From positions 10,505 to 74,504 of IMG/VR virus record IMGVR_UViG_3300028591_000180: DNA of 64,000 bases; one strand, 5' to 3'. Positions 16,125 to 64,000 of this stretch are shown in pieces. Position numbers and translations under genes: made by a program. This DNA comes from a virus. Its lineage: Duplodnaviria; Caudoviricetes. The notes below the pieces were generated by a model. It was given only the letters and a program-made list of their open reading frames with translations, was not told where the DNA came from and searched no databases. The first letter of the stretch is position 1. Each line of letters opens with the position of its first letter.

Positions 16125-16775
16125 ATGAAAGTTTATTTAGCTGGCTCTATTTTTTATTATGGTGATGAGTTACGTAATAGAGAATGGGCAAAGAAAATTA
16201 GAGACCAATTCCCCGGTATTGATCTTTACTCACCAATTGAAAACACAGACATCAACGGTACTGAAGGCAAGAAGAAGTTTGCCGGTTCTAAGTTAATTGC
16301 TAATGGAGATAATCAGAGGTTAGATAATACTGATGTTCTATTGGCTTGTATTGATGGAGATGTTATTCCAAGTGGCACTAGTGCAGAAATTGGTGTAATG
16401 AGAGAAAAGATTCGTAGAGGAGATCATAAATACGTCATTGGTATTTGCACTGATAACAGAGAGTGCTCAAGGACACATAGTTTAGAGAAAGATCAGGGTG
16501 CGGCTGCAGACATTTGTGAGCAACAGTACTGCTATCAAAATCTCTATACGGTGGGTTTGATAAAGGAATCTGGCATCCTTGTAAATAACATTGATGATGC
16601 TATTGAGTTTATGAAAAAGATTGCCCCTGAATTTTTACAGGAGTTTGTAGACTCAGAACCCTGAGATAATGAAAAGATTTTTAATTTTCTAAAAGATGAT
16701 AAATCCTTTTGAGGTGAAGATGAAGAAGTTAAACAATACTCAGAAGGAATGCGGAGGGAAATATTAAATGGATAA
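16125..16775 (+). CDS. nucleoside 2-deoxyribosyltransferase family protein (TGA=Trp extended)
   Basis: MKVYLAG, YSP, D.LLA.IDG...SGT.AEIG. Reading TGA 16662 and 16710 as Trp extends it to TAA 16773-16775, overlapping the next ATG. Confidence 0.8.
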
Positions 16776-18012
16776 TTTAATTTATAAAATTGATGAATCT
16801 CCAAAGACATTAAAAGAATATCTATTATATGGTGCTCAGCAATGTCTTTCTATTCTTACTGCCACAATTCTTATTTCTACCATTTGTGGTACTAATGTGG
16901 CGGCTGGTTTTGTAGGAGCTGGTGTTGCAACAATTGTATTCTTAGTATTAACAGGATTTAAAGCTCCATTATTCTTTAGTAATAGTGGTTCTACCTGTGC
17001 TGCTGTTATTACTGCTTTGGCTTTAGGGCATGATTACACCGGTGTTATTCTTGGTGGTGTCACTATTTGTGTTATGAATACTTGTGCAGCTTTGATTACA
17101 AAGAAAGCTGGTTCAGGCTGAGTCAATAAACTATTACCACCTGTTGTTTCTGGTACGATCGTAACGATCATTGGTCTTAACCTCGCTGGTTTCTGTGCTA
17201 CCTATGTTGGCATGGGAGTTGAAGGTGAACTTAAGAGAGTAATTGTAGCATTCTGTACAATGCTCATTACAGTTTGTACAATGCACTACTCTAAAGGAAT
17301 GTTAAAGACCTTACCATTCTTAGTTGGAGCTTTAGGTGGTTACTTGATTTCTATCATCTTTGGACTAGTTGACTTCTCAGTTTTCAAAGACATTTCATTA
17401 ATTACACTTCCGGACTTTGCGTTTAAGCATATTGACTTTAAATTATTTGATTGGGCAACATTACCAACAATCATTGTGACATTTGGTGCTGTAAACCTTG
17501 CTAACTTAGGTGAGCATATTTCAGACATCTTAGCTGTAAGTACAGTAGTTAGAGAAGATCTTACTGAGAAAGTTGGCTTACATAAAACATTCTTAGGTGA
17601 TGGTATCGCTGACTTAATTGGTACATTTATTGGTGGCCAGCCTACTACTACTTATTCAGAATCATTATCTACCATTGCTGTTTCTAGAGTAGCATCAACC
17701 AAGGTTATTTTAGTGTCTGCCGTTATGACTGTCTTATTAGGTTTCTTTGGTCCATTACAGACATTAATTATTAGTATTCCTGATTGTGTCTTTGGTGGTA
17801 TTGCTCTAGTAGCTTATGGTATGATTGCTGCAAGTGGTGTTAGAATTCTGACGACAGTAGATTTCAATAAACAAAGAAATGTTATTATTACAGCTACGAT
17901 GTTAACAATCGGTGTTTCTGGTGTAGCTTTTAATATTGGCCAGTTTACTCTGGGAGCTATAGCCTTAGCTATGGTATCTGGGCTGGTGATCAATTTATTA
18001 TTAAAAGAATAG
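16768..18012 (+). CDS. uraA: NCS2 uracil/xanthine permease (UraA/PyrP-like)
   Basis: Track fragments 16768-17121 and 17212-18012 are in frame and joined by TGA 17119 (GSG-W-VNKLLPPVVSG). EHISD, GDGIA, PTTTYSE and GGI motifs. Confidence 0.88.
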
Positions 18013-18046
18013 TGTATATTATTTTTTAGAAAGAAAGAGGTTAATT

Positions 18047-19270
18047 ATGAGGAAAATTATTTCTAAAATCTTAGTAGTTCTGTTAGTAACTGCATCATTG
18101 TGGGGTTGCTCTGGTAGTAATGAAAATAAACCTGAGCCAGAAAAGAAAGTAAAAATCGGTGTCATTTTAGTTGGAGATGAAAATGAAGGTTATACTTATG
18201 CTCACATCGAGGGTATTAAAGATGCTGCTAAGGCAAATAATATGACTGACGATCAAATTATTTGGAAGTATTCAGTTGGAGAATCTCAGGATTGCTATGA
18301 TGCTGCTATTGACTTAGTAGAACAGGGTTGTACTGCTATCTTCTCTAACAGTTATGGCCACCAGGCTTATATGCAGAAGGCTGCTGCTGAACATCCTGAA
18401 GTTAAGTTTGTTTCTGCTACAGGTGATACTGCTGCTATTTCTGGTTTGGATAACTTCTCTAATGCGTTTACCAATGTTTATGAATCACGTTATGTTTCTG
18501 GTATCGTAGCTGGTATGAAGTTGGCTGAGCTTGAAAAAGAAGGTAAGATTGATCCTGAAAGTTATGTTGATGGTAAGGTATTAATTGGTTATATTGGTGC
18601 TTTCCCTTATGCAGAAGTTGTTTCTGGTTATACTGCATTCTTCCTTGGAGTTAAATCAGTATTTGAAAATGTTACGATGGAAGTAATTTATACTAACTCA
18701 TGGTTTAATATTATTGCTGAAGCTGAGACCGCTAGAAAAATGATGGAAGATCATTGTGTAATTATCAGCCAGCATGCTGACTCCACCGGTGCTCCGTCTG
18801 CAATTGAATCCGCTGGAAGGGAAGTTTATTCTGTTGGTTATAATGTTGATATGTTAGGCGTTGCACCTACTAAGGCTTTAACAAGTGCAACTAATACTTG
18901 GGGTGTCTACTATACTTATGCATTTGGCCAGGTATTAAAAGGTGAAAAGATCGCTACCGACTGGGCTGAAGGATATGAGACCGGTGCTGTTGCCATCACC
19001 AAGTTAGGCCCAAGCTGCGCTGCCGGAACTCAGGAAGCCGTTGACAAGGCCATCGCCAGCATCAAGGCCGGAACTCTGCATGTATTTGATACAAGTACCT
19101 GGACAGTTAATGGTGAACATTTAACAGAATCGGTAGTCGACTTAGACGGTGACTTCAAGACTGATTCTGCTGCCGATAAGAATGCTATTTGGGACGGTTA
19201 CTTCCATGAATCTGAATTAAGAAGTGCTCCTTCATTTAGTGTTCGAATTGATGGAATTATCGAAAAATAG
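18047..19270 (+). CDS. BMP-family nucleoside-binding lipoprotein
   Basis: Signal peptide with lipobox LWGC; NSYG, YESRYVSGIVAG, IGYIGAFPYAEV, QHAD motifs. Confidence 0.88.
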   Translation: MRKIISKILVVLLVTASLWGCSGSNENKPEPEKKVKIGVILVGDENEGYTYAHIEGIKDAAKANNMTDDQIIWKYSVGESQDCYDAAIDLVEQGCTAIFSNSYGHQAYMQKAAAEHPEVKFVSATGDTAAISGLDNFSNAFTNVYESRYVSGIVAGMKLAELEKEGKIDPESYVDGKVLIGYIGAFPYAEVVSGYTAFFLGVKSVFENVTMEVIYTNSWFNIIAEAETARKMMEDHCVIISQHADSTGAPSAIESAGREVYSVGYNVDMLGVAPTKALTSATNTWGVYYTYAFGQVLKGEKIATDWAEGYETGAVAITKLGPSCAAGTQEAVDKAIASIKAGTLHVFDTSTWTVNGEHLTESVVDLDGDFKTDSAADKNAIWDGYFHESELRSAPSFSVRIDGIIEK

Positions 19271-19293
19271 AAACTATAAATATTAATTAATTT

Positions 19294-21027: not shown

Positions 21028-21044
21028 TTGCTAAATTAAATATA
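21028..21044 (+). promoter_or_regulatory. putative late promoter TTGCTAAATTAAATATA
   Basis: Identical 17-mer upstream of 21069. Confidence 0.65.
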
Positions 21045-21068
21045 ATAAAAATCATTGGAGCTTTTAAT

Positions 21069-24000
21069 ATGAAAATATTAGTAGAAAATATAGACGGCGG
21101 AATTACCTATAAAGAAATATACGAGAATCTAAAGGAAGTAACTTCTAATTTTTCAGTTGAAGAAGGTATCTTTAAATGTGATTCTCTTTTTGAGGCTAAT
21201 ATCGCTAAAGAAATTTTAAATCGGGTGTATTCTGATGTATATACAAAACCATTAGACATGAATGATGATTTTGATTTGTATTATTCAGTAGTTTTTTCTA
21301 ATAAGATTTCTGAAGAATATAAGGATTTGGAAATCCAACCAGATAAGGATCCATCTGGTACTCCAATCGGTAATGGTACAGGCTTAGGAGAACAGTTAAT
21401 AGAAAAGATAGTTAAAAAATCAGACGGATACTATGTTCAATCTGAGAAGGGTAAAAACTTAGGTGGACCTTATTCAAGGGAAGATGCTGAAAAGAGGTTA
21501 AAGCAAGTGGAATATTTTAAACATAAAGATGAATCATTAAATGAAGCTGATGATGAAGAAGTAGAAGATTATGAAGAAGATCTTCTTGAATTCTTTGACG
21601 AAGAATTATATAATACTTATGAAAATGATTTATCAGCGGCTACTAAAAAGGAATTACTCGCTGATGCTAGAGAAGCTTTTAGTGATATACCTGAAACTAT
21701 ACTTAAAAAGGTCTTTAAAAAATGGTTAAAGAGTGCTGCTAAAGGAGTTGAAGAATACTCCTCAGAGCAGAAAAAATGGGCTCGTGATGGTCACAATTGG
21801 GTATTAGGTATTTTAAATGACACACAGAAGTGGATTAATGCCTTAAAAGAAAAAGCTGAAAAATTAGTTGGTCAAAGAGAAACCATGTATACAGGAGGAA
21901 CAATAAAGGGTATTAAAGATTCAAAAAATATTTTATACAAAGGCGTTCCTATCTATGCAGTTACTTATGAAATTCCTGACTCTCCTAGGCCAGAGCGTAG
22001 AGAAATAACCTATTTCTATTTTCCTTATATTAATAATTATATTGATGGGCCAGTAGTAAAAACCAGATATTCATTGGGAAGTGCGCATGAAGAGATTGAT
22101 GATCTTCTTGAAACAAATAAAGTTACAGCTAAAGATGAATCATTAGATGAAGCAGCTACTCCACTTAAGTATCAAGTTGAAGTCACAGTAGATGGTGAAT
22201 ACGATGCTGACATAGATGAATACTGGATCCCAGATAATCTTCCTGATTTATTACAAGGTTATTATGGTCAGGAGCCTGTAGATCGTTCTCAAAAGCAATG
22301 GCATTTATATTATGCTTTTGCTACTAAAGAAGCTTGCGATAAGTTTGTCAACGCGGTGACTAATATGGGCTATGTAGTTTCAGATATTAATGATGATGAA
22401 GTTGGATATGATTTTGAAGAATCATTAAATGAAGCGAAGAATAAAAACTATAGAGTTGAGCTATATTACTATGACAATAATAAACCTGACGATGTAATTT
22501 ATTTTGAAAACCTGAAAGTAGCATATAATTTCTGTAATAATAAAATTTCAGACAATATTGCCTATGATGATGGCCTTACTGGTATTTTAGTGTTTAATGA
22601 AGCTAAAGATAAATTATTAAACACCTGGCAAAATGGTGGTAGAGGCTGGGAAAATAAATCCAAGGAGTTAATTAAGATGAATGAGTCATTAAATGAAGCT
22701 AAATATGGGGCTTATGATAATACACCTGAAGATGTTATTATGACTGACTTAGGAATTGGCCCAAAGAAGAGATTTAGAGTTAGATACTATAGTAGAGGCA
22801 GTTCAATATTATCTTCTATTGTAGTAGAAGCTAACACAAAAGAAAACGCTTATAAAGAAGCTATTAAATTAGGTATTAGTGAGTTCGCCATTAAGAGTAT
22901 AAACGAAATTAAACCAAAGGCTCAATCTACCAATGAATCTTTAAATGAAGAAGTAAATTTAAAACCTGGAGATGTTAAGTGGTCTTGGTGGCTTCATAGC
23001 TATTTAATTTATCAGGGTTATAATAAGATAACAAATAAGTATAAATTTGAAGATTTTGGAGATAGATTAATTTATCTTACCGCAGAAGAAGTTTCAGACC
23101 TAGAAGACAAACCTAATAAGAATGAATCATTAAATGAAGAATATGAGGCAGGCGTAAAGATACCTAAAAAATATTTATTAGCTAATGGTTATACAGAAGA
23201 AGAAATTAATGATTTACCTAATACATTATATTCTAAGTATACTGTAGATGTTAAAATTGCACCTAATGATATTATAATTACTGATAACCACCACGGTTAT
23301 AACGTTTCATATTTTATGCATTATTCTGACTTAGCTAGATTCGCTAGAGAAATTAATGAATCAATAAATGAAGGTGTATCTCCAGAACAGGCAGCACAAC
23401 TTAATAAAGAATGTGATGAAATTTATAAATATCTTTCTGAAAACGGCATACATGAGGACGTTTGATGGGATGATTCAGGTAGAATAAATATTGAAATTGA
23501 ATGGGGTGACTGGAAACACGAACACCTTAGATGTAATAGACTTATGACGATGCTTGGTTATGAGTGTGTTGATGAAGTTGTAACAGATGAAGATGGTAGT
23601 GATACTTATTCTGCTCGCCATATTTATAAAAAGATAATGGATGAATCATTAAATGAAAGTGATAAACCATCATTCCTTAATTATATGTATGATATTTTTG
23701 GTGATGACGACCGTTGGGAAGAAAACCCTGATGTAGAAGATTATTACCGCCAAGAATATAACACAAAATATGATAGTGATAGTGATTCTGATAACTTTAT
23801 TATAGACCAAACTTGGAGTGATGTGCACCCATCAAATAATCTTAATGATTATTCAGAACCAAAAGAAGAAGAACCTGAAGAGTACGAAATGACCGAAGAA
23901 GATTATGCTAATATGTTAGATTCTTATAATCTTACTTTAGAAATGTCTGATGAAGAAGCTAAAACCCAGATTGAAAAAGAATTTGCCGGAATGTTAAGTT

Positions 24001-24290
24001 GGGGTGGTATTTCTAAAGAAGACTATATCGAAGGTCAGAAAGAAATTTTTGACACCTGGAAGATGTTAAAAGAAAGAGATCAGAAACCAGCTCCAACTAC
24101 TGAAGCTCTTAATGAAGAAGATGAAGAGCCTGAAGCCAGGTGCCCTAATTGTGGCGAGGAAATGAATTTCATTGGTTATCAAGGCCATGACGAAGAATTT
24201 AAGTGCCCAATTTGTGATGTGTATTTCTATTATGACCCAAATAAAGAAAAACTTATGACTGCTGTCGAATATGAAGACATGCATCATTAA
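21069..24290 (+). CDS. 1073-aa acidic modular protein with nine ES(L/I)(N/D)E-type linkers; putative virion internal polyprotein
   Basis: Track ORFs 21069-23465 and 23544-24290 are in frame and joined via TGA 23463 (EDV-W-WDD). Linkers at 21531, 22137, 22419, 22683, 22935, 23124, 23358, 23643 and 24102. Confidence 0.75.
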
Positions 24291-24305: not shown

Positions 24306-25529
24306 ATGATAAAAGATTTTGATAAATTAAAATATTTATTAAGTGAATTACTTACAAAATACCGAAACGAAATAAGAAACGGTGATTTTGATAAGGTAGT
24401 TTATTCTTTATGGTGAAACTCAGATAGATACAATGGGAAAGATTTTAAGGGTAAAACTTTCCTTGGATATTGTAAAAGTTTGGGGATGCTTAGCCCACAT
24501 CAAGTTATAGTAGAAATAAATAATACTTGCGGTACTAATTTTAAAGATAGGTTATTAGATAAAGATAATAAAGACTATTATTATTTAAAGTTTATTTATA
24601 CTTGATATGATAGCTTACATCCTGAGTGGGGCCCCATTTCTAGAGAATATTGGTTACAGGCCTATTCAATTAATGGTAAATTACAAGCTCAATTTTGAGA
24701 TATAACTACTATTGAAAATAGGCTGTGTTTTGATTCTGAAAGTGAAGCTAATAATTTAATTAATAGGATAGAGTCATTAGGCCATTTACCACAGGATCCA
24801 AAGAAGAGACTAGACCTTTCAAAAATGAAGTGGAAAACGGTTAAAGTAAATAAAAATTCTAAAGTTTATGAAAAACTTGGACCTATGGTAAAGAAGTTAG
24901 TATATATGAATTTAAGTACTCTTCATGAACCAGTATCTGAAACTTTACCAGAATTTTATGGATATATTTACTCAAGTAGAAATAATGGTGAGATACCATT
25001 TAGTGATGATGATTTTGTAGCCGAGAGTTTAAGTGAAGCTGTTTCAAACAGTTTATATAACGGCGGTTTGAAAGATAAGAAAGCCAAATTGGATAATGAG
25101 AAAATGAGTATTAAGTCATTAACAGAGAAAACGGATTTAACTTATGAGCCTGAATTGGTCCAGAAGTTAGTTAATAAATATGCAACTCCTGAGTTACGTA
25201 AAAGTGATTTAGATGATATCTGAGAAGAAGTTATGGAAAAATATGATAATGTTGATTTAGCCGAAGAAGTTTATGATTCTCTCCATGCTTGGCTTGGTGA
25301 TATGTGGAATGAATCTTTTAAAGCTGACAATATTAAAGATGAAGAACCTGAAGATTGGCTTACAGAAAAGAGAAATTCTTGTATACGTGATTATAGGATG
25401 TGGGCTGGTCTTGGTGATGACGAGTTAATCACTGAAGATAAAATTGATGAGTGGGCTTTAAATAGAGTAAGCTGTAACAGTAATTACGACTATGATGATT
25501 TAAAAGAAGTATTACTGTCAAATAAATAA
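24306..25529 (+). CDS. hypothetical protein (407 aa, four TGA=Trp)
   Basis: ATG 24306 open through TGA 24414, 24603, 24696 and 25221; absorbs track ORFs 24825 and 25233 and fills an otherwise empty 530-bp gap. Confidence 0.75.
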
Positions 25530-25543: not shown

Positions 25544-26620
25544 ATGAAAATAAAAGTTAAAAAGAAGATTACTGAATCTAAAAAGCTTAATGAGGCCTCT
25601 TTAGAAGATGAGGTTAAATCAGCTGAGAGTCAGATTGATAACGATAAGGTAGTCAACGGTAATAATCCTGGTCAGATTGAAACAGCTCTTGATAGAGCTT
25701 TACGTACAGCTGAGAGACAAAAGAGAACCGGCGGAAAGAATTATACTAATATTATTTTAATTGGTGGAGCTGGTACTGGTAAGACTTCAGCTGTTCTTGA
25801 TTGAGCTCAAGAAAATGGAGTTAACGTTGTTTTACAAAATACTTCTACAATGGATGAGACTGACTTAACTGGTGTTGTTGCTAGAAGTGCTGAGGGTAAT
25901 TCAACCGTTAAATTACGTTCTGATGTATTAAAGGGATTAAATGAACCCAGATCGATCTTATTCCTTGATGAGTATAACCGTGGCCGTAAATCAGTTCGTG
26001 GTACATTATTAACATTAATTAATGACCACCTTATTGATACAGGTACTGACCAGGAATCAAATGTTCCAGGCTTACAAGGTAAGTATGAATTAAAGAATAT
26101 GTTATTCACTGTTGCGGCTATTAACCCGGCCTCAGGTGAATATACTACTGATGAGCTTGACCCAGCGGAAATTTCTCGTTTCAGAAGAATTGAGGTAAAG
26201 GCTGATAAGAAACACTTATTAGATATTATGACTCAGAAGTTTATTAAGCAGGCAGAGTCTGAAGGTGCTACTGATGAAGATAGAGAAATTATTGCTGGCC
26301 AACTTGGTTTATTAACTAAATTATTATCAGATAAACAATTCCAATTTGATGATGAGGAAGACGAGAGGGCTGGCTATCGTAAATATGGAAGAGATTATAC
26401 TCCATTATCACCAAGATCTCTCGTTAATTTAATTTCAGCTACTGATGGAACTAAAGAAGATTTACTCGATTTATACAATGATTTCTGTAACCCATTAAAG
26501 AAGAATACTATTGAAATGATTCTCCAGGATTACAGTGATGTTGATGATAAGGCTAATTCAGTATTTAAAAAGAGAGAAAAATCAGACGAAGAAAAATTAG
26601 ATGATTTCTTAAATATGTAA
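25544..26620 (+). CDS. MoxR-like AAA+ ATPase
   Basis: Walker A GGAGTGKT, then TGA 25802 (VLD-W-AQE); Walker B ILFLDEYNR; VAAINP; ELDPAEISRF. Confidence 0.85.
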
Positions 26621-26633: not shown

Positions 26634-27230
26634 ATGGCAATGACTGAACGTGAAAAGTTAGGCCGCGAAATTATCATAAAATCTCTAAGGAAAGAAGGAT
26701 ATGTTACTTACAGTAATTTACTTTCTGATTTCCATTTAAATTTTACCAAAGATCCCGATGTTTTAGGATATATGGAACCTGATAGAGGTACCATCACCGT
26801 TAATTCAAGTTTAGATATGGACCAGATAAAGGTTATAATTAGACATGAAATTCTCCATTTCTATTTAAAACATCATATTCGTAGTATTAAAAAGATGGCT
26901 CAGCTAAAAGGAGTAGATCCAGATAGTTTAGATGATATGACTTTTAGAGAGATGGAAGAACTTGTTTATGGTGACCCAGAGAGGCTTGATAACATTGCTA
27001 AGGACTTTGAGATTTCTAATAGAGGCTATACCGATAAAGATAAAGCGATCGTTAGGTCCATGCATGCTCTAGTTACAGAAGATCATCATGAAGACTGAGT
27101 TGATCTGACAATGGAAGAGATGTATGAAAAACTTTTACAAGAAAGAGAAAATAGAGAACCTATTATGTATGGGGCATTACTTGACCCTACAACCTTTGTG
27201 GGAGCAGATGGAGTAGTTTATGGCAATTAA
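26634..27230 (+). CDS. HExxH metallopeptidase-like protein (vWA-associated N-domain type)
   Basis: IIRHEILHFYLKH; DFEISN. TGA 27096 readthrough reaches TAA 27228-27230, overlapping the next ATG. Confidence 0.7.
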
Positions 27231-32617: not shown

Positions 32618-32657
32618 TGACCTATAATAATAATGTAAATAAAGGAAGGTACTGAAG

Positions 32658-32819: not shown

Positions 32820-32860
32820 TTTACTAAACTATGTATAATTTATTATAATAATAATGTAAA

Positions 32861-33010
32861 AGGAGCCCTCCGGTAATCTTAGGATTGACGGTGAAAGACG
32901 GAATATCTTCGGATATTGTTGAAAGTAAGGATGCGTCCAGAAATCATTAACGCGAAAGGCAACAAAATATATTAAATTAAAAGAAAGTTAGTTTCGAAAC
33001 TTTCTTTTTT
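32861..33010 (+). ncRNA. candidate structured non-coding RNA of unknown family
   Basis: Promoter at 32844, no ORF, three stems including AATATC-TTCG-GATATT, terminator at about 32980-33010. Confidence 0.5.
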
Positions 33011-33048
33011 ATTATATAATAATAATGTAAATAAAGGAGGTAACTCAG

Positions 33049-33534: not shown

Positions 33535-33566
33535 AAATTATAGAAAAAATTATTTGGGAGGCATAT

Positions 33567-51804: not shown

Positions 51805-51830
51805 AGGTACCTTAGGGTACCTTTTTTCTT
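51805..51830 (+). terminator. rho-independent terminator
   Basis: AGGTACC-TTAG-GGTACCT followed by a T tract. Confidence 0.75.
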
Positions 51831-51846
51831 TGCTAAATTTATATAT
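51830..51846 (+). promoter_or_regulatory. variant late promoter TTGCTAAATTTATATAT
   Basis: First 10 nt identical to the 17-mer; upstream of 51862. Confidence 0.55.
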
Positions 51847-51861
51847 AATAGGAGGTTTTGT

Positions 51862-52698
51862 ATGTCTGAAGAAAATAATGAATTCGGATTTGGTTGTTTA
51901 CCTGGAAAGATAGACTTAAGAGATTATAAAATTAAACGAGAGGTAGCTATGGCTTATAATTACCCTGAGACTTTTTCTTTAGAGCATCCTCCAGTAAAAA
52001 ACCAAGGAGCTGTAGGATCTTGTGTAGCTCATGCTACATCTGAGATTCTTGAGTCTCATTTAAAAGAATATAAGAAATTATCTACAAATTTTTTGTATGG
52101 CATTCATTATAAATTATTTGGTAGCAAGGGCCCTGGGATGTATTTACGAGAGGCCTGTAAGATAGCTAAAGATTATGGTGACCCAGAAGAAATTTTTTGT
52201 AAAGGAAATACTGAAGTTCCACATGTTTATTCAATGGCTGAGAATTCTTTTAAGGATCCATCCGTTTTAGAAAATGCTAATAAGTATAAAATTAATAGCT
52301 ATGTTAAACTTAGGACAGAAAATGATATTAAATATTCATTAATGTATCATGGGCCAGTATTAATCAGTGTTGAATGATTTTCTGATTATGAGTTTAAATA
52401 CTCAACTGGGATTTTATCTCCTGGTGTAAAAAGTGCTGGGCTGCATTGTATTATGATTTATGGGTGAAATGAAGATGGTTGGTTATGCCAGAATTCATGG
52501 GGAGAGCTCTGAGGTAAAAACGGTTGTTTTGTTCTTCCTTATACTTATGAAATCAATGAGGCTTATGCCTTAATTTCTGATCCTTCTAGAGACGATATAA
52601 ATAAAGTTAAAAGGTGTAAGCTTTTAGATTTTATGTATAAAATATTAAATAATTTAATAAATTGGTTTGTTGATGTATTTAGGTGACTTAAGAAATAA
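51862..52698 (+). CDS. papain-like C1A cysteine protease (TGA=Trp x4)
   Basis: NQGAVGSCVAHA (Gln/Cys), HCIMIYG-W, GWLCQNSWGEL-W-GKNG. The catalytic His and Asn lie beyond the first TGA. Confidence 0.88.
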
Positions 52699-53354
52699 TG
52701 AAAATTTGTGTTGGGATAATAAGCTACTTACCTGATGGTGAGAGTATCAGGTTTCAGAGGTTTAAAAAATTAATTAATTTACTCTCAAGAATAGATAAGG
52801 TTTTTAAGTTGCCTATTTTAATAATAGCTCAAAACTGAAAAGATTGTGAAATACCAGTGCTACAGAATTCTTTATTAATTATTTATAGCTACGACGAAGG
52901 TCTAGGAATTACTGGGGCAAGAAGAGCCCTTCGAGATAAATTTATTAATTCTGAGTTTGATTATTTAATAATGTTAGATGACGACTCTGAATTGATTGGT
53001 GATGAAAGAGATGGGATGGAATACTTATCTCAGATCTATTCTCACCCAAACATGTATGGTGTTTTTAAAAGTATGTTGCTGAAGCTTTTTGCTATCTCAA
53101 AAGAAATGTATAAGAAAATAGATTTTCCAAAGGGAGAAGCTGCCAATGGTGATTTTTTCGAAGACATGTATTTAATTATGGCTTTAGAAAAATTATACCC
53201 ATCAAAGAAATTTACTTTTAAAAGAAATGGAATAAATGAGTATTCTAATTCAGCTAATGATTCGTTATCTACCTGATATCATAAGCAGTTTGTTAAAAGG
53301 AAGATAGGCGATAATACTAGAGAAATGATAAGGAAATTAAAGCATGTCAACTAA
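52698..53354 (+). CDS. GT-A-like glycosyltransferase (TGA=Trp x2)
   Basis: IIAQN-W, GITGARRAL, YLIMLDDD, FEDMYL. Confidence 0.65.
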
Positions 53355-53988
53355 ATGTATCGGAATAATAAGTTATCTACCAGATGATCCAGAATTAAGA
53401 GAAATTAGGAAATCTAGATTATTATCACTATTAAAACAATGTGATGATTGATTTAAGATTCCTATTATTATTGTAGCTCAGAATTGAGGCCAGGATATCG
53501 ATCTAAAAGTAAATAATTCTAAATTGATTGTTTATAGGTATAAAAATAGATTAGGCATTACTGGAGCCAGACTAGCTCTAGTAGATAAATTTCTTTCTTC
53601 TTCGTATGACAGGATTATTTTCATGGATGATGATATGGTCCTCAATAACCCCGAAGAAGTACATAAATATTTAACTCTTCTCGGAGACAAAGACTTCTAT
53701 TATATTCCTGGCTGGCTATGTAATTTTTGTTCAATAAGTAGACATGGTCTATCAATTGTAAATTTTGATCCTAATACTAGTGCTGAGAATCTTACTGGAT
53801 TTGAAGATTGATTATTTCTCCAGACCTGTATAAAGAAATTATCTAATGGAAAAATAAATTGTAAGCTTGGCCGTGGAGTCCGTCGAAATTATTTAGATGA
53901 TAAATATTCTACCTGGAATCCAAGTGGTATTTATAATTCTTCGAGAAATAGCAGTGTTACCAGTTTAAAAATAAGGAAGATAAAATAA
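53344..53988 (+). CDS. GT-A-like glycosyltransferase paralogue (TGA=Trp x3)
   Basis: GIISYLPD, IVAQN-W, GITGARLAL, IIFMDDD, FED-W-LFL. Confidence 0.65.
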
Positions 53989-54653
53989 TGAAATATATAA
54001 TAATGTGTGGTGGTAATTATGAAAAATTTAAGGAACCACGTTGGCTTACTAAGGTTCATGGAGAAGTCTTATTAGAAAGAACTATTAGGCTATTACGTGA
54101 ATTAGGAGTCGAAGAAATTTATATAAGTAGTAATTTTCCTGACCGCTTTAAGTATTTAGGATTACCAATTTTGATTCATCAAAATAGTTATAAAGCTGAT
54201 AAAGAAAGTCATCTTGATGGGTACTGAGTAGATGCATTTGTACCTCTGTCTATGCCTGTTTGTTATTTATGTGGAGATGTTTGATATTCAAAAGAAGCTC
54301 TAGAGAAAATAGTTAATACTGAAGCTAAAGATATTTTATTCTTTGGTACTCAGGAACCTTTTGCTAGAGGATATAATAAATCTTTTGAAGAGCCCTTAGC
54401 TTTTAAGGTAGTTGATCAAAAAAAGTTCAGAGAGTGCATTGATAAAGTAAAATATTTACAAGATAATCATTTAACTAACCGGCTACCAATTTCCTGGGAG
54501 CTTTATAGAGTTATAGATGGAATAGATCCCAATGAGCACCGTTTAGGTAAACGGTTTATAGGTATTCATGATTTCGCATTGGATATTGATTCTCCTAGAG
54601 AGGTTAAAAACTTAGAGGAAGCAATAGATAGGAACTTGGAGATTTTAGAGTAA
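53988..54653 (+). CDS. NTP transferase, LicC/sugar-phosphate nucleotidyltransferase-like (TGA=Trp x2)
   Basis: MKYIIMCGG...EPRWL.KV.GE.LLERTIRLL, YLCGDV-W-YS, DIDSP. Confidence 0.75.
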
Positions 54654-54670: not shown

Positions 54671-54687
54671 TTGCTAAATTAAATATA
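54671..54687 (+). promoter_or_regulatory. putative late promoter TTGCTAAATTAAATATA
   Basis: Identical 17-mer upstream of 54706. Confidence 0.65.
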
Positions 54688-54705
54688 GTAAGGGGTGTAT
54701 TAGTT

Positions 54706-56124
54706 ATGTCATCAATTACACAAGAAGTTATAAATGGACCTGGTAGTGGTGGTGGACCAACCATCTCTTTTACAGTTTCTGATAATGATTCTTTAATTGG
54801 TTGTTTTAATTTTGTTTATGATAATTTGAATAAGGTTAAAGCAAAGGCTGGCAGTGACAAGGGTACACTTCTTGGTCCTAACATTATAAAGAATCCAATA
54901 AAAAAAGTTACTTTTAAAGATGTAGCTGATTCTAGCTTAAAGAGAAAAGTAAGGAAGGATATAGGAGAAGATAGTATTAGAACTACTATTATTTCAAACT
55001 ATAATCCTTATTATTGAAATTATAAACAGAAAAATAGTGTCGGAATTACAGGTATTAATAAAGGATGTAGAGTTAATACTTTAGATGAAATTACTGGAAA
55101 ATCAGTGTGGTGATTCCCTTGGCCAAAATCAGGTACTAATGGAATAAAATATAAAGAAAAAGATACTAAGATAGTATCACAATTAGTACCTAAGCCATCA
55201 ATTCCTAACTGTGTAGGATGATGCTATGGGAGAATTAAAGAAATTTGGTGTGTAGCCTATGATTGCGGATTCATCAGAAACAAGGCTGGATCAACTACTG
55301 TATATCAAGTAAGGTTACCTAACGGTGAATATAAAGATATTACTGGGCAGATTAAAATGTCAGCGGCTGGTGATATTCCTTCAGGAAATGCTGGTAATTG
55401 GTATACTGCTAAGTTATGGAGTAATCAGGCAGGTTTCTTTAAAACTAAACCTGAAGGGTCAGATAGTTACCGTCCTTTACCTGGAGCTGTTATCTGCTGG
55501 AAGAATAAAAGTTGTGGTCATGTAGCCTTTGTAGAAGCAGTTGTTAATTATGGCCGAGATGATGAGTATATTATAATATCAGAATCTTCATACCCTAATA
55601 CTAAATCTGGGTATAATTATGGAATTAAAGAATTAGTAAGATACCGCAAGGTTGATAGGTGAAATGCTTATTCTCCAAAAAGGAAGGGTGTTCCTTATAA
55701 TTATAGTGGTAATACTTTTAGAGGATTTTTATATTCACCTGTTTGTCAATTATCAACTGTTAAATTTCCCTGTGAACAGGAAGTACATGAAGATCCTGAT
55801 ACAGGTAGTATAATTCCAGGGTACCCCGGTTCTGGAGCTGTAATAGGTGATGATATGACTCCTGAAGAAAAGGGTACAGTTGGTGAGCTCATCGGTTCTC
55901 TGTCAGGAACTACTATTTATAAAGATATTGAATTAAATTCTTTAGTAAGAATTGAGTGAGTTGGAAATGAAAGAGACGACGGCTCAGGGAAACGAGTTAA
56001 CTATTTATGGTTAACCGGTGAAGTATTATCTATTGATTTAACAAAGCCATACCCATACGGCGTCAGTGTCGATGAGGAAAAAATAAATGGCTATTATAAG
56101 CGAGAAGATTTGAAAGTAGTATAG
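54706..56124 (+). CDS. CHAP-domain peptidoglycan hydrolase (TGA=Trp x5)
   Basis: PNCVG-W-CYGR (Cys), GNAGNWY, PGAVICW, GHVAFVE (His), ISES. TGA at 55015, 55111, 55219, 55660 and 55957; TAG 56122-56124. Confidence 0.82.
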
Positions 56125-56132: not shown

Positions 56133-59100
56133 ATGGCAATCAAAAATTTAGATATTCAATTAAAAGATAAAGACTCTAATAACTTATTCCCCTTAGCTCA
56201 TAAGGATGCTTTAGGTCGAGTTATTTCAGATACGTATCTTACTTCAGTAGACTTTTCTGATATGGAAGGAAGAGTAGAAAACGTTGAAAATTTAGTTGAG
56301 AATGCGGTATCTGGTATTGGTTATACTTATGCTAAAACTACTTCTGCAGCTCTACCTCCATCACCTAGTGATTTTATCTATACAGAAATGCCCGACGTTG
56401 AAAGAGGATATTATATCTGGCGTAAGTCTGACGTATCTAAGGTTAGTGGAGACTCTAGCGATACAATTGAAATGATCCAGGGCTTAGATGGTCTTTCTTC
56501 AAATATAACTTCAATTGAGATTAGATATGCCTATTCCGACCAGGGTACTGATCCTACTAGAATTAGTAGCAGCAGCTGGCAGTCATCTATTCCAAGTGTA
56601 GCCAGTGGATCATATCTCTGGACAAGAGTTATTACTAACTACTCAGTTGGCTCTCCAAGTACTTCATATTCTGTTGCTTATCAGGGACTAAATGGTGATC
56701 CAGGCGTATCAATTTCAAGCGTTGAAAATCATTATTTGGCTACATCTTATTCTAGTGGTGTTGGTAAGTCTGATGGTGCTTGGGGTCAATGGTCTCCAAA
56801 TGTTCAAACTATGGATTCTACTAACCAGTATCTTTGGAATTATGAATCTGTTTATGACTCAGATGGTAATAAAATAAGTGAAACTGAACCAACTATTATT
56901 GGTAGATATGGTAAAGATGGACGAGGAATTACTTCAGTTGTTGAATTTTATCAGATATCTGATAGCTCAACAGACCCACCTAAGACATGGGTTAACCCGT
57001 CTGTATCTCCTATGCCAATTACTACTTCATCAAATCCTTATCTTTGGAATTATGAAGTAATTTATTATACAGAAGGTAACCCTGTAGCTACAACTCCTCA
57101 CGTTGTTGGTGTTCATGGTGTATCAGCAGTAGCTTATAGCTTATTGGCTAATAATTATGTTTTAATAAGAAATCAGGATAGTTCGATTTCTCCTACTTCA
57201 GTTACTTTCAGCTTAACTTCTAAGACAGGAACAGGTACTCCTTCTCCTTATTCAGGAAGATTTAAGATTTATGCTTCAACTGATAATTCTACTTGAACTT
57301 TAGCCTATGATTCTAATAGTGATGAAAGTTCACATACCTTTTCATTATCTACAGATTTACCATCAGGAATAACTACTTCTAATCTAACTGGAATAAGGGG
57401 CGAAGCCTATATGGCAGGCGGATTCTCTTATTTAGTTGATAATCAGGATATTGTTGTTATTCAAGAAGGATGGAATGGTTTAAACGTAGCTACGGCTTAC
57501 TTATATAAGAGAGTACCTGAAAGCTCAGAAGGTATTACAGGTCCTACTGGTACCTTAAGATATACTTTTAATACTGGTATACTTTCAGCCGATAATTCTT
57601 CTTATTTTAATGGCTGGACACAGACTATTCCAGATGATAATGGTGATAGCTGTTATGTTATTTTGGCTACTGCTAGTTCTGCAGATTCTTATGATGATAT
57701 TACAACTACCGAGTGGAGTACTCCAGTTAGCTTTGTTAAAAGCGGCAATGACGGTGAAAACGGAACAAATGGATACAACACCGCAACTATTAGTTTTTAT
57801 AAGAGAAGCTCATCTTCATTAGCTTCAGAGAGACCATATTCAAGTACTGTAACTTATACATTCTCTACTGGACAACTGAGTACATCATCTGACCAGGGGT
57901 GGTTTAGAAATATCCCTGTTTCTGATGGAAACCCTTGTTATATTAGTAGTGCTACTGCAGTAAGCAATCAAAATACTGATGAAATTACTGTTTCTAATTG
58001 GTCTGCTCCAGTTTTAATTTTAGAAGATGGCAAAGATGGTATGGATGGTGCCCATATTTGGACTACAAATTCAGCACCTTCTACTCCTGATTATACTTTT
58101 ATTATTTCTAATTTAACTGGAGATACTAGTGCTGATGTTCAAGTAGGAGATATTATTTTCTATTCTACTTATAAATATACAGTTACTTCAGTTTCATCAG
58201 CTACCTGCTTGGCCGGGAATAGAGTTAATCTTAAAGGAGCTACTGGATCTGCTGGTTTAAATAATGCTACAGTCTATCTATATAAACGAGCGGAATCTTC
58301 TGAGACTCCAGCTGCTCCTACCGGAAATACTACTTATTACTTTGAAACAGGAGTACTGTCGGGTAACTTAGATGGCTGGTCACAAGAAATTCCTGAAAAC
58401 ACTGGTGATCCATGCTGGGTAATTTTGGCTACTGCTTCTTCAACAGAAGATCATGACGTTATTAACGGTACTGCTAGCGGTGATAGCCAGTGGAGTGTTC
58501 CTGTTGAATTTATTGTTAACGGAGCTGATGGCTTAGACGGACTTGATGGCTACAACACTGCTACTTTATATTTATATCAAAGAAGCGCAACTGAGCCAGT
58601 TATTAATAGTACTACAATGCCTACTATTACCTATACTTTTGCAACGGGAACTTGAAGTGTAGTCCCAGACGGCTGGTATAGGAATGTACCTGATAGTAAT
58701 GGAAATCCTTGCTGGATGACTACTGCCAGTGCTATTAGTAGAAATTCTTCTGTTGAGATTACCCATAACATGTGGAGTGAGGCTACTAAGCTAGCTACTG
58801 ATGGATATAATAATGCTTCTATCTTCTTGTATAAGAGAATAAATCCTTCTACAATTGATTCTAGCGGAATAGCTGGCCCCTCTGGTACTTTAACTTACAC
58901 TTTCTCAACTGGAGAATTATTGCCAGATTCTTCAAGGAATGGTTGGTCACGTGAAGTACCTCCAGAAGGAGTAAATAAATATCCTTGTTATTTCATTGTA
59001 GCTACGGCCAGTACTTCTTCTGATAGTGATAATATTACTACTGATGAATGGACTGAGGCGGTTGAATTCTCTTCAAGTGGAATTAATACTGCTACCATAA

Positions 59101-62100
59101 ATTTATATAAGAGATCATCAACTAATTTAGTAGGACAGAGACCCTTCAGTGGATCTTCTTCTACTTATGATTTCTCTGATAATTTATTAACTAGATCTGG
59201 TGGATTAAATAGCTGGAATACATCAGTACCTACTGCAGATGGAAATCCTTGTTATGTAACTAGCGCTACCGCTGTTTCAAGAGGAGATACTGCTACTATT
59301 GATGATACTAAATGGTCTGATGTTACAAAGTTGGTAGAAGATGCTTGCTCTGTAATGTTAACCAATGATAATCATACTTTTGCTGGCACTTCTACTTCTG
59401 CTATAGCTTCTAGTGTTAATACTTCTGTATTAGCCTATAAGGGATCCATTCAGGTAAAAACAATTATCAATAATATTACAACAGATAGTGCTACTGCTAC
59501 TGATATTAGTACTGCAGTTGGTGCCCCTACTGGGATGACAGTTACTGTTGTACATTCAAATTCAACACAATCATTAATAACTGTCTCTGTTAGTACTAGC
59601 ATGAATACTAGACAGGGTGTTTTAACTATACCTGTCAAGGTAGATAATACTACTTATAATCTAAATTTCTCATACTCAGTAGCTTTAGCTGGTAATGATT
59701 CAACTTCTTATAATTTAAGTTGTAGTAGTTATATTATCGTTAGAGATAAAAATAATAATCTTTCTCCTGGAGCTATTACTTTTACAGGATATTACCAGAG
59801 GGGAATTAACAGTAAAGCTAGATACAGCGGAAGATTTAAGATTTATACTTCTACTGATGGTGGATCTACTTGGAATAATGTTTCTTCTGCTACTTCAACT
59901 TCTGATGAAGAGACCAAGACATATACCATACCAGCTAACTTGAAATCCAGTTTAACTGATCTCAAGTGTGAGTTATATCAAAGTGGTGGAACATCTGTTT
60001 TATTAGATACTCAGAATGTATCCGTAGTAAATGATGGAGAAGATGGTGAGCCATCCTATAATGTTGTCTTAACTAATAGTAACCATACCTTCCCAGCTGG
60101 TACTTCTTCTGCTATTGGTGGAAATACTTCTATTGGAGTACTGGGATATAAAGGAGCTACCCAGATAGATACTAATATAGGTACTATTACTGGTAGTAAT
60201 TCTGATTACCCAAGTAAGATTTCTGCTCAAATTAGTAATAATGATACTACTTCAACAACTATTACTGTTACCGCAAGTTCTACTCTAAGTCAGGATGGAA
60301 CCTTAACTATTCCGGTAACCTTAGACGGAAGCCATACCTTCAACATGACATTCTCTTATTCTTTAGCTTTCCAGGGGACTCCTGGTAGAGATGGAGAATC
60401 AGGTAAAAATGTTGCTACTGTTTATCTATATAAAAGAGCTGACTCTGCTTCTGATGCAGGTCTCCCTCTTGGTACATTAACTTACCATTTTGATGACGGT
60501 ACTCTAACCGGTAGTACTTCAAACTTTAATGGATGAAGTCAATCAATTCCTGCAGATAATGGTAAAATTTGTTGATTAATAGTTGCTACCGCATCATCTA
60601 CGGCTCCAATTTTAATTGATGGTATTGAAAGGACGGAATGGACTCAAACACCAATTAAATTAGTCCAGAGCGGATCTAATGGCGTTTCAATTACTGATGT
60701 AGTAGAATTCTATTTAGCTAGTGCTGATTCTAGTGGTGTTACCATTAATACCCCAGGATGAGTTACTGACCCTACTCGTTCAGAAGCTACTATTTCTCCT
60801 ACACAGCCTTATCTTTGGAACTATGAAGAAGTCTGGGGAAGTGATGGTAACCTTAAAAATACTAGGAGTCCTGCAATTATCGGTAGGTATGGATTGAATG
60901 GTAATGAAGGCGTAGGAATACGTAGTATTGAAGAATATTATGGAGTTTGATCAAGTAATACTAGTTGGACAGGAATTAGTTGGATTCCTGGATCTGAAAT
61001 TTCTGATTTGCCGCCTACTTCTCGTGAATTCCCTTACCTTTGGAATTATGAGGCAATTACTTATACTAATGATAATATAGTTACTACAGCTCCAGTAGTA
61101 ATTGGTACCCATGGCGTAGATGGAATTAACGGATTAGATGGTTTTAATACAGCTACAGTTACTTTATATACTAGATCACTTACAGCTCCTGAAAAACCTT
61201 ATACTCCAGAGTCTTCTGAAGATACAGGTATTTTTAGTTATGATTTTTCAGCTGGTACTTTCACTCCAGCTTATTCAAATATTTGGAGTACTGATATCCC
61301 AGAAGATAATAGCAGTACACCTTGCTGGTCAACCAATATTACTATTATTAGTAGAAATAGTGTTGCTTCAAATCTTTCATATACTCAATGAAGTACTCCA
61401 GTAATTGTGTACATGAATGGAACTAGCGGTATTAACTATTGGGGAAATAGTAAACCTTATCTGGCTTTAGCTGATTATAGCTCTCCTACTAGATATTTAT
61501 TTAAAGAACAGGGATATACTTTTTCTAGGCCATCATCTTCTTATTCTGACTCTTTAAAAGTTTTTGAAAACGAATATTATCAATTAACTTTCAAGGCTAG
61601 TAGAACTCAGGCGGAGGGCAGCTCTGTTCAACTTCAGAAGCCTCAGAGATACCCGAACACTCTTTATGATTACATGCCTGTCCTCGAGTCATTAAAAGCT
61701 GGAGATATAATTACCATTTCGTATGAAGTAAATACTACTCAGCCAATTCAGGCTGATGCTTATATTCTTGCTCAATTAGTTGGTTCAACGGCTATATCGA
61801 ACACGACTGAGAGAAAAACTATAAGTAGAACTAATGAATGAGTAAGATATTCTGGCTCGCTAACTGTATCTCAAGAATTAATTGATATTAGAGATGGAAC
61901 TGACAGTACTCCAGCTGACAGATTAATAGCCGGCCTTAGACTATTTGATGTAGTAGGACTTACTCCAGCTTCAACTGAAGTTATAATGAAATTACGTAAC
62001 ATCAAATTTGAGTTCGGTCCAGTTGCAACTCCTTGGTCTGCTATGCCAAATGACTTAGTAGCCTCAGAAGTTGTATTGAGTTCAAATGGTTACACCTTCC

Positions 62101-64000
62101 CAGCTGGATCTGATGGAGCTGCTATTGTAGATGGATCTACTAATATTACAACTTTAGATTTAGATGGCTATAAAGGTAATGAACTACGACCAATTATAGT
62201 TGATACTGACAATATCTCTGGCTTACCTACTGGGTTAACTTATACTATTGTCAACAATACTACTATTAATACCGCTATTACTTTTACTGCAGATGCTACT
62301 CTTACTTCAAGGGCTGGGGCTATTTCAATCCCAATTACTATTGATGGAAAGACGGTAACTAAGTATTTTGCTTACTCATTGGCTGTTACAGGTGCTACCG
62401 GCGCTTCGCCTACTGCTTATAGTTTAACTCCTAGTGACTATGCTGTTATTAGAGACACCAATAATAATAACCTGAGCCCGGATTTAATTACCTTTAGCGC
62501 TCGATCACAGACAGGTGATGCCAACTGGTCTAATTATAGTGGTAGATTAAAGCTTTATTCTACTAAAAATAATTCAACTTGGGATTTGGTTTATACCTCA
62601 CAGACTGATGAATCAAGCCATCAATTTGATTTTACTGCGGATTTACCTTCTGGGACTACAATCGCAAATGTTGTAGGAATTAAATGTGAATTATATTTAG
62701 CCGGTGGCACTACTACTTTATTAGATACCCAGACTGTACCAGTCATTGATACTGGTCTGAATGGACAACCTGGATCTCCTGGTGCTGATGCTTATACATT
62801 AATATTAACTAATGAATCTCACTCTTTCCCAGCTGACAGTAGTGCTCATGCTATTTCTGATAATACAACTAAGGCTAAATTGATCGCCTATAAGGGTGGA
62901 ACTCAGGTAACTTGTTACGCTGGATCATCACCTCAAGCTACTTCTATTTCAACTGGAGTTGATGGATTAACTTGTTCTATTGCCAATAATAATTCTACAA
63001 ATGTAGAATTAACCTTTACAGTATCTTCTGCTTTAGAAGGCAGCGGCGTGGTAAATATCCCTGTTGTGGTTGATGGTAAATCATTTACCAAGGGATTTAG
63101 TTATTCACTATCAGTAGCTGGTGAGTCTGGTGAAATTGGTGTTGGCGTCGAGAATGTTGAGCCGCTGTATTACCTGCAAAATGATGGAATGAACATCGAG
63201 CTCAACGGTAATACCAAGCAGACCGGGAAGAACTTATTTGATATTGGACAGTCGTTTAATAATAGTACAACAAGCCAGACAACAACAGTTTCTGGTAATG
63301 TATTAACTATTACAGCAACAGGCACAACTGGAGCACAATTCGCAATAGCTTATGTTAGGAATTGTGATAAATCAAAATCATATATTCTTTCTCTTAAGGC
63401 TAAAAAGGTAGTAAAAGGCACTGACGGTGGACCTAGAATAAATATTTATATTTATGGTTCAACAGATGGAGGATCTACTTGGAGTAGTCGGATAGATCAA
63501 GTTGGTAATATTCCAACGCAGGGGACTGTATACTCATTGAGTGGTACCGCTGTAACTGGGTATGACACGTATAGGTTTTATTTTTATAACAACACAAGTA
63601 CCCCAGTAACAGTAGGTGAACAGACTCAATATTGGGATATTCAATTTGAAAATAATACATCGGCTACAGATTATGAGCCTTACTTTGGTGGTATACCGTC
63701 ACCAGATTATCCTATGCCTATTCATAGTGTTAGCGGCAATAATACTGTTACTGTTTGCGGAAAGAACGTTCTGAGTAGTGAATATTTAGCTACGGGAACA
63801 ACTTTGATCCCGTCGGGAACAACCGATGAATGTATACTTGCTGGGTGGGCATCAACACTGATAACTCATGAAAATCTTGTGAAGTTCCTTGAACCTAATA
63901 CTACATACACAATCTCTTATGATGCAGTTGTTACGGCGGTAACAGATATTCCAACACTGTATTCATCACAGGCAGGGTTCTTGTTCTTTAGCCAATCTAA
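56133..64000 (+). CDS. giant repeat-rich tail/host-specificity protein, partial (>2600 aa, at least 8 TGA=Trp)
   Basis: One frame open to the window end when TGA=Trp. Collagen-like G-x-x-G linkers, YLWNYE/YLWTR modules and repeated NTATxYLYKR...TYTF.TG...W...P..PC(Y/W)..ATAS units. Confidence 0.8.

Follow-up and report, generated by a model that had tools for sequence, protein, structure and literature searches.

Gene map of the contig and in-frame TGA codons

The DNA analyzed here is a 64,000-nucleotide stretch of a phage genome (the window in what follows), in which the codon TGA appears to be read as tryptophan (Trp) in one set of genes and as a stop in another. The window comprises bases 10505-74504 of one 74,504-bp viral contig (34% G+C) that is present in sheep-gut metagenomes of several studies, RNA libraries included. 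The contig has no terminal repeat, its end falls within an open reading frame (ORF), and its CheckV completeness is 49%. The capsid-like protein led to 52 related IMG/VR loci, many of them on contigs of 135-168 kb, and to no relative among cultured phages; a terminase was not recognized in Pfam or PHROGs searches of the phage proteins. The closest whole relative is IMGVR_UViG_3300026549_000043 (139,874 bp; G001 below), which is collinear with the contig over its positions 58.7-127.7 kb at protein identities of 50-87%. Because of this collinearity, the contig probably represents roughly the right half of the 135-140 kb genome of a virulent tailed sheep-gut phage. A second contig of 59.7 kb (IMGVR_UViG_3300028591_000247; G011) is collinear with positions 1-57 kb of G001 and may be the other half of the phage genome; its structural block is heavily TGA-recoded, its replication block is without TGA, and its promoter motifs are as on the contig studied here. 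G009 is a more distant complete relative of 168 kb.

The first-pass annotation, made from the letters of the window, had noted about 45 in-frame TGAs in the later genes. The exact count is 47, distributed across 21 genes between positions 16125 and 63998. These genes are listed below in window coordinates, together with one neighboring lysis gene that has none.

16125-16775, + strand: nucleoside 2-deoxyribosyltransferase (Pfam PF05014); TGA 16662 and 16710, both TGG in G001; TGnTATAAT-type promoter just upstream
16768-18012, + strand: xanthine/uracil-family permease (Pfam PF00860, E 7e-66); TGA 17119, TGG in two relatives
21069-24290, + strand: 1073-amino acid (aa) protein; TGA 23463
24306-25529, + strand: 407-aa protein; TGA 24414, 24603, 24696 and 25221, the last TGG in G001
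25544-26620, + strand: AAA+ (MoxR-like) ATPase (Pfam AAA_5); TGA 25802, TGG or TGA in relatives
26634-27230, + strand: 198-aa protein; TGA 27096, TGG in two relatives
31813-32562, + strand: 249-aa protein; TGA 32467, opposite TAC (tyrosine) in G001
35230-35577, + strand: 115-aa protein; TGA 35248, also TGA in G001
36084-36962, + strand: 292-aa protein; TGA 36336 (TGA in two relatives) and 36744
39114-40289, + strand: 391-aa protein; TGA 39456, also TGA in G001
41926-42321, + strand: CBM5/12 protein (Pfam PF02839); TGA 42034 and 42283
42448-42819, + strand: 123-aa protein; TGA 42679, TGG in 3 relatives
44360-46765, + strand: 801-aa protein; TGA 46700, opposite TGG in 10 alignments and opposite TGA in 2; an independent contig from an RNA library has the identical sequence at this site
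46979-48112, + strand: BspA-type leucine-rich repeat (LRR) protein (Pfam LRR_5); TGA 47201 and 48077, the latter TGG in 8 alignments
48131-49612, + strand: BspA-type LRR protein (Pfam LRR_5); TGA 48527 and 49277, both at variable repeat positions
50656-51780, + strand: M23 peptidase fused to a C-terminal Dp-1-type holin in one ORF (Pfam PF01551 and PF16938); 6 TGG, 0 TGA
51862-52698, + strand: papain-family (C1) peptidase (Pfam PF00112); TGA 52375, 52465 (W202), 52510 (W217) and 52684, three of them also TGA in G001
52698-53354, + strand: 218-aa protein; TGA 52836 and 53274, the latter TGG in two alignments
53344-53988, + strand: 214-aa protein; TGA 53449, 53485 and 53809
53988-54653, + strand: MobA-like nucleotidyltransferase (Pfam NTP_transf_3); TGA 54225 and 54282
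54706-56124, + strand: CHAP-domain protein (Pfam CHAP); TGA 55015, 55111, 55219, 55660 and 55957
56133-63998, + strand: tail-fibre-like giant protein of more than 2621 aa, cut by the contig end (tail/tail-fibre PHROGs); eight TGAs at 57294, 58653, 60534, 60573, 60759, 60948, 61389 and 61839, three of them TGG in G001

Under code 11, the region past 16.1 kb falls into fragments, and the permease would end at residue 117 of 414. When TGA is taken as sense, the same region resolves into compact plus-strand genes whose starts are adjacent or overlapping, which bears out the earlier observation that readthrough joins the fragments and closes the gaps to overlapping ATGs. The recoded frames run on without a shift and are interrupted by no TAA or TAG; all 20 of the complete recoded genes terminate at TAA or TAG, the 21st being the truncated tail-fibre gene. 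Across the TGA sites at 46700, 47201, 48077 and 49277, library contigs of a different study match the window exactly, and these TGAs are therefore not assembly errors. In this AT-rich DNA, comparing crude ORF coverage between codes 4, 11 and 15 was uninformative, and codon-level homology was used instead. An index of deep in-frame TGAs has no clean control, as many of the nrdD-neighbor loci are themselves recoded, and was used for description only.

Two more recoded ORFs lie upstream of the window, at contig positions 2632-5160 and 5181-6329 (842 and 382 aa, with 11 TGA versus 14 TGG), so recoding is not limited to the part of the DNA from 16662 onward in which it had first been placed. This pair (contig 2590-6329 region) stands behind a late-type motif, described below, between nrdD and the early gene array; it has no Pfam or PHROG match and no counterpart in G001.

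The first two recoded genes belong to a nucleoside-salvage cassette (16125-19270) consisting of the deoxyribosyltransferase, the permease and a PnrA/Bmp-type substrate-binding lipoprotein, with its own TGnTATAAT promoter and terminator. The cassette is kept in G001 and in a 151-kb contig binned in a goat Methanobrevibacter metagenome-assembled genome (MAG). For a phage, it is unusual to have a membrane permease among its auxiliary genes.

TGA occupies tryptophan positions

To identify the residue specified by TGA, code-4 translations of the ORFs were aligned by tblastn to five whole relatives and approximately 45 loci, and the codon opposite each TGA was read. Among the 113 codons found opposite the TGAs of the window, TGG accounted for 50, TGA for 14, TAT/TAC for 11 and serine (Ser) codons for 10, the Ser codons being mostly at variable LRR positions. 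No glycine (Gly) codon (GGN) was found opposite any TGA site, which excludes code 25 (TGA as Gly). The TGG codons of the window show the same profile, with TGG (430), TAT (50), TTT (32) and TGA (14) opposite them. At the level of sites, TGG or TGA stands opposite 26 of the 36 TGAs that have a homologue, and the contig and G001 have TGA in common at 10 alignment positions.

Comparisons within the window gave the same result. The two LRR paralogues share a C-terminal TN-W-ATYS motif in which the Trp codon is TGA in one (48077) and TGG in the other (49577), and in the C-W repeats of the tail fibre it is TGG three times and TGA once (60573). In the papain-family peptidase, W202 and W217 are both encoded by TGA; the residue matching W217 is Trp in both of two solved papain-family relatives and that matching W202 in one of the two. 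The CBM5/12 sites at 42034 and 42283 are TGG in six relatives each, and the CHAP-protein sites at 55111, 55219 and 55957 are TGG in G001. The first-pass annotation had proposed the Trp assignment from the LRR and tail-repeat pairs and from conserved Trp sites in the papain, CBM5/12 and CHAP proteins; each of these withstood the comparison, and the homologue alignments confirm that TGA occupies Trp positions.

TGA terminates some of the early genes

In another set of genes, called early here on the basis of promoter motifs and gene content, TGA ends the reading frame. Four early genes whose starts were set by the Shine-Dalgarno site carry TGAs only at the 3′ end (contig 7314-7598, 8795-9157, 10604-10714 and 10711-11040), and in three of these four a TAA or TAG follows 2-5 codons past the TGA. 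The last two lie in the window:

100-210, + strand: 36-aa hydrophobic early ORF ending in TGA; ATGA overlap with the next start; its own two Trp codons are TGG
207-545, + strand: early gene with its only TGA at 534-536, three codons from the end, and TAG two codons on (543-545)

If TGA were read as Trp in the 100-210 ORF, it would extend by 31 codons into the next gene, in a different frame from that gene. The chance that four random Trp codons would all fall in the last five codons of genes of approximately 100 codons is about 1e-5. The early genes of G001 likewise have near-terminal TGAs.

Recoding largely follows a late-type motif

Two conserved upstream elements were recognized. The early element consists of TATAAT, a conserved leader and the ribosome-binding site AAAGGAGG, and is present in seven copies in the contig. 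Most of the copies have a TTTACA-like -35 hexamer 18 nucleotides (nt) upstream of TATAAT, within the preceding terminator hairpin, a layout with classical sigma70 geometry. The late element, TTGCTAAATTAAATATAA, precedes five units with at most one mismatch, at a distance of 35-49 nt from the first gene; the units start at window positions 9866, 21069, 33567 and 54706 and at contig position 2632; a variant precedes the gene at 51862.

3721-3746, + strand: early promoter/leader motif (TATAAT, leader, Shine-Dalgarno site)
14225-14250, + strand: early promoter/leader motif
32623-32648, + strand: early promoter/leader motif, within the late region, before a 53-aa ORF
33015-33040, + strand: early promoter/leader motif, before a 69-aa ORF
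9825-9842, + strand: late-type motif, 41 nt before the DUF6267 fusion gene 9866-13378
21028-21045, + strand: late-type motif, exact copy, 41 nt before the gene at 21069
33518-33535, + strand: late-type motif, exact copy, before the gene at 33567
51830-51847, + strand: late-type motif variant, before the papain-family peptidase gene
54671-54688, + strand: late-type motif, 35 nt before the CHAP gene

A stretch of approximately 190 nt without ORFs was also observed in 32820-33048. An early-type promoter and a sequence resembling a ribosome-binding site stand before it and a terminator at its end; even at E <= 10 no Rfam family matched it, and it is not a tRNA.

In terms of codon usage, the early and other sigma70-type units contained 4 counted internal TGAs (3 real ones, as the remaining one precedes the true gene start) versus 132 TGG, and the late-motif units contained 52 versus 160 (Fisher p = 9.5e-9). 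TGA thus makes up about a quarter of the Trp codons in late-motif genes, and the bias of TGA towards the late-motif units is real. The earlier proposal that recoding is concentrated in the later genes rather than spread uniformly is upheld by this contrast, which tracks the conserved late motif. Likewise, no gene in the first 16.6 kb had been thought to need readthrough, and positions 1-16100 of the window are without an internal TGA once starts are set by the Shine-Dalgarno site.

Suppressor tRNAs of the relatives

No suppressor tRNA had been seen in the window, and the same holds for the full 74.5-kb contig, itself about half a genome, in which no tRNA of any kind was found. ARAGORN at very relaxed settings returned only noise within coding regions of the contig. 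The lack of a suppressor is probably accounted for by the missing half of the genome, where the relatives carry tRNA(UCA). The search beyond the window that the first-pass annotation had advised did recover such genes, in G001, G011 and G009. In both G001 and G011, the tRNA(UCA) gene sits approximately 10 kb upstream of the point matching the contig start. The G001 gene is 98 nt long (L209:4650-4747) and lies 3 bases upstream of tRNA-Trp(CCA), about 11 kb before nrdD. The G011 gene is 99 nt long (L264:11829-11927, minus strand) and reaches 46.4 bits against the Rfam tRNA model; once the insert in the variable region is taken out, it is closest to tRNA-Trp, and G73 is kept. The tRNA(UCA) of G009 has 72 nt and a G73 discriminator. 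A further tRNA of G009 has the ochre anticodon UUA (L119:393-467).

To examine the long variable regions of these tRNAs, IMG/VR was scanned for genes resembling tRNA-Trp with a pattern that kept the anticodon loop, T loop and GCCA end constant. The counts were as follows:

UCA anticodon: long variable region at 73 loci, short at 10 loci
CCA anticodon: long variable region at 13 loci, short at at least 118 loci

The long arm is thus associated with UCA and not with CCA (odds ratio 66, p = 3e-32, the short CCA class being taken as at least 118). The long-arm phage tRNA(UCA) genes, including those of G001, G011 and loci L224-L296, are 91-100 nt long. In 32 of the 41 distinct long-arm tRNA(UCA) sequences the insert folds as a hairpin, with a loop of mostly 7 nt, N-U-C-C-A-A-N, which is the anticodon loop of tRNA-Trp; the invariance of UCCA in the hairpin alignment is a product of anchoring on the loop. 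In the stem, 86% of cells are paired versus 52% after shuffling, and covariation is 0.86 versus 0.24, a value reached in 0 of 500 shuffles; compensatory changes are present in all five stem pairs. RNAalifold on the full tRNA alignment missed the arm, as the stems were misaligned, and loop-anchored counting resolved it. The long arms of tRNA-Trp(CCA) genes have no CCA loop. Most likely, the hairpin is a second copy of the anticodon arm, through which TrpRS still recognizes the tRNA although its anticodon proper has become UCA. A tRNA engineered to have a pseudo-anticodon in its variable arm can indeed recruit the anticodon-binding domain of a synthetase (Mukai 2020, PMC7590224). The phage tRNAs resemble those engineered tRNAs (PMC7590224) in the pseudo-anticodon arm, and differ in that they are natural, carry CCA (Trp) rather than GUG (histidine), are known from sequence, and lie off the contig. 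No published description of natural tRNAs with a duplicated anticodon arm was found.

Two further tRNA types were observed in the scans. A few phages of other environments have a 92-nt tRNA-Trp with a CCA anticodon and a long arm without a CCA loop (L297-L308). An 88-nt tRNA(CUA) of another relative (L043:15412-15499) has a long variable region with CUCUGAA, possibly a look-alike of a glutamine (Gln; CUG) loop; this is a single case with a 2-bp stem.

Host

The host is likely a bacterium with the standard code. The sigma70-type early promoters point to a bacterial host, and the M23, CHAP and Dp-1-holin domains to one with a peptidoglycan wall. By the homology test there is no recoding in relatives G002-G005, in which TGA is the stop codon of 8-27% of genes; this suggests that the hosts of this phage family read TGA as stop. 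The first-pass annotation had favored a walled Firmicute host with code 11. The wall is supported by the enzyme domains, and a standard-code bacterium by the early promoters, the TGA terminators and the TGA stops of the sister phages; assignment to the Firmicutes remains a reasonable guess. RecA is too conserved for naming a host, and no exact match to the nrdD protein turned up in other assemblies. A scan of prokaryote genomes gave a single match, JAFRFD010000012.1 (151 kb), in a goat ileum Methanobrevibacter MAG that is a GTDB representative; its permease is 82% identical and nucleotide identity is 66-76% over approximately 12 kb. This 3.1-Mb MAG holds at least two phage contigs of the family.

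A probable two-code phage genome and the alternatives

It is quite probable that the phage is written in two codes, with its late genes gated at TGA by a tRNA-Trp(UCA) encoded in the missing half of the genome. The early genes (the small-gene array, gyrase, nrdG and recA, behind sigma70-type promoters) would be standard-code genes, with all Trp codons TGG and at least four ending in TGA. The late-motif genes (virion, LRR, CBM, papain, CHAP and tail-fibre) and the nucleoside-salvage cassette would use TGA as Trp and only TAA or TAG as stops. As the host would read TGA as stop, the TGA-containing genes would at first remain incomplete and could not be finished until the phage tRNA-Trp(UCA) accumulated and allowed readthrough. 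The predicted result is a delay, at translation, of tail, lysis-accessory and transporter proteins. We infer the timing, which code the host uses, and that this phage encodes the tRNA. More tentatively, this may be an elaborated two-code programme, in which the back-up stops protect the early genes under suppression and the duplicated CCA anticodon arm of the switch tRNA keeps it charged by the host TrpRS.

Several observations weigh against this interpretation. Promoter class and recoding do not correspond perfectly: all three real TGAs of the sigma70-type units lie in the deoxyribosyltransferase and permease genes, behind a TGnTATAAT promoter, the DUF6267 fusion gene has the late motif in front yet contains no TGA, and the M23-peptidase/Dp-1-holin lysis gene has six TGG and no TGA, unlike the neighboring papain and CHAP genes. 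The TGAs of the deoxyribosyltransferase and permease represent changes since the split from G001, because all three are TGG there. Furthermore, the labels early and late were inferred from motifs and gene content, and the contigs of four runs compared with the window, which place it in RNA libraries, cannot show timing or expression level. The contig itself carries no tRNA, and genes for RF1 (RF-1 domain) or TrpRS (class Ib synthetase domain) were not found in G000, G001, G006, G008 and G009. Finally, G011 and the contig have no overlapping sequence in common, so G011 cannot be demonstrated to be the same phage.

The evidence was also weighed against other readings of the TGAs. One of them dispenses with a suppressor and supposes near-cognate readthrough by the host tRNA-Trp(CCA) together with a phage factor that disables release factor 2. 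It is consistent with the contig lacking tRNAs and with the detection of a suppressor in 35% of code-4 phages (Borges et al., bioRxiv 10.1101/2021.08.26.457843). However, the closest relatives have tRNA(UCA) in the syntenic part of their genomes, which this contig lacks, the eight TGAs in a tail fibre of more than 2600 aa would demand near-complete readthrough each time, and no release-factor-related gene was found in the related records searched; this explanation is unlikely. Alternatively, the host itself (Mycoplasmatales) could use code 4, so that the phage simply shares its code and no switch takes place, a scenario that would suit the 34% G+C, the presence of genes often found in Mollicutes (those for a PnrA/Bmp-type nucleoside-binding lipoprotein and for nucleoside salvage) and the contig's lack of a suppressor tRNA. 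We consider it very unlikely, given approximately 45 early genes with about 130 TGG and no internal TGA, four of which end in TGA. In AT-rich code-4 bacteria TGA is the main Trp codon, whereas here it accounts for only approximately 25% of Trp codons even in late genes. Sister phages stop at TGA in 8-27% of their genes, relatives encode their own tRNA(UCA), and the M23, CHAP and Dp-1-holin genes imply a peptidoglycan wall.

A reading of TGA as an amino acid other than Trp, that is, Gly (code 25, as in Absconditabacteria/Gracilibacteria), Ser (by an allo-tRNA-like long-arm tRNA) or selenocysteine, is highly improbable, although the G001 tRNA(UCA) scores best on the Rfam tRNA-Sec model (39 bits, under the cut-off) and its long variable arm is a SerRS handle. 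Ser-inserting long-arm allo-tRNAs occur in rumen bacteria and phages (Mukai et al., PMC5389517), and Ser codons do stand opposite TGA in 10 of 113 cases, mostly at variable LRR positions. On the other hand, Gly stands opposite no site, 26 of 36 sites are matched by TGG or TGA, conserved Trp positions of papain and CBM among them, and the G011 tRNA(UCA) minus its insert is closest to tRNA-Trp with G73 kept. In addition, the early genes are without internal TGA, whereas the use of code 25 spans most genes, and 47 sites far exceed selenoprotein usage. A Methanobrevibacter (archaeal) host, to which the 82% permease match and the 66-76% identity over about 12 kb of JAFRFD010000012.1 might point, is extremely unlikely. 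That contig carries a tRNA array and is a phage genome in its own right, placed in an oversized bin (3.1 Mb) that holds a second phage contig. The other 102 Methanobrevibacter genomes gave only chance-level AT-rich matches and no spacer-like match, for which reason the match is regarded as mis-binning; the bacterial -35/-10 geometry of the early promoters and the bacterial-type RecA, M23 and CHAP proteins argue in the same direction. Sequencing or assembly errors or pseudogene decay would be suggested by nothing other than the apparent fragmentation under code 11. With four TGA sites identical in the contigs of another study, frames unshifted, TGAs common with G001 at 10 positions and no TAA or TAG interruptions, this explanation has a negligible probability.

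Comparison with known recoded phages

The two-code arrangement proposed here resembles one described by Borges et al., work that was reportedly published in Nature Microbiology in 2022. In the preprint, TGA-to-Trp phages of animal guts are described, among them ruminant 'Agate' phages of approximately 127-154 kb in which structural and lysis modules are recoded, replication genes are standard and close relatives use the standard code (bioRxiv 10.1101/2021.08.26.457843). A TGA-rich ORF within an early gene was also described, and a suppressor was detectable in 35% of code-4 genomes (10.1101/2021.08.26.457843). The reference to this work in the first-pass annotation was apt, since it covers the same pattern, ruminant phages included. 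Because size, modules, relatives and suppressor detection all match, the phage appears to fit this TGA-recoded, Agate-like kind that is already published, a likeness by described features and not by tree.

The present phage is similar to the Agate phages in its size, the recoding of late modules, its standard-code relatives and the patchy detection of suppressors. The TGA-rich ORF in an early gene of the Agate phages may be compared to an insert in the nrdD gene of G001, which is split by 1.1 kb (60663-61775; L107:663-1775) carrying a 282-aa ORF with 7 TGA and 0 TGG. The nrdD pieces of G001 correspond to residues 1-528 and 524-665, whereas the nrdD gene of the contig is uninterrupted. The insert matched no group I intron or Rfam intron model and no homing-endonuclease or other Pfam domain. 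In contrast to the Agate phages, the holin-peptidase gene is not recoded here and the nucleoside-salvage cassette is, and TGA-terminated early genes with near back-up stops are documented.

Other recoded phages share some of these features. The Jade phages likewise read TGA as Trp, with a predicted Firmicute host and a recoded lysis cassette (10.1101/2021.08.26.457843); the RF-1 and class Ib synthetase domains of their code-change operon (TrpRS, RF1, tRNA-UCA) were those not found in the five records named above. The crAss-like and Lak phages also combine stop reassignment in late genes with standard-code hosts and phage suppressor tRNAs, but belong to unrelated lineages with Bacteroidota hosts and mostly reassign TAG to Gln (Yutin et al. 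2021, PMC7886860). Phages of Mycoplasma and Spiroplasma use TGA as Trp too, but their hosts share the code and TGA is used throughout, whereas the early genes of the present phage avoid TGA as a sense codon and use it as a stop.

In practical terms, an annotation that assumed code 11 would fragment 21 genes, among them the tail-fibre gene and those of three candidate enzymes with wall-acting or proteolytic roles. The contig offers a codon-by-codon example of what is probably a phage keeping two genetic codes in one genome. To the published pattern it adds a map of promoter classes, early genes that end in TGA with back-up stops, and a transporter cassette that appears to have been recoded recently, and it links this phage family to a tRNA(UCA) with what is most likely a spare anticodon arm. 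Such an arm-bearing tRNA(UCA) bears on how the host TrpRS may charge the opal suppressors of phages and on why few suppressors have been detected, which Borges et al. left open.

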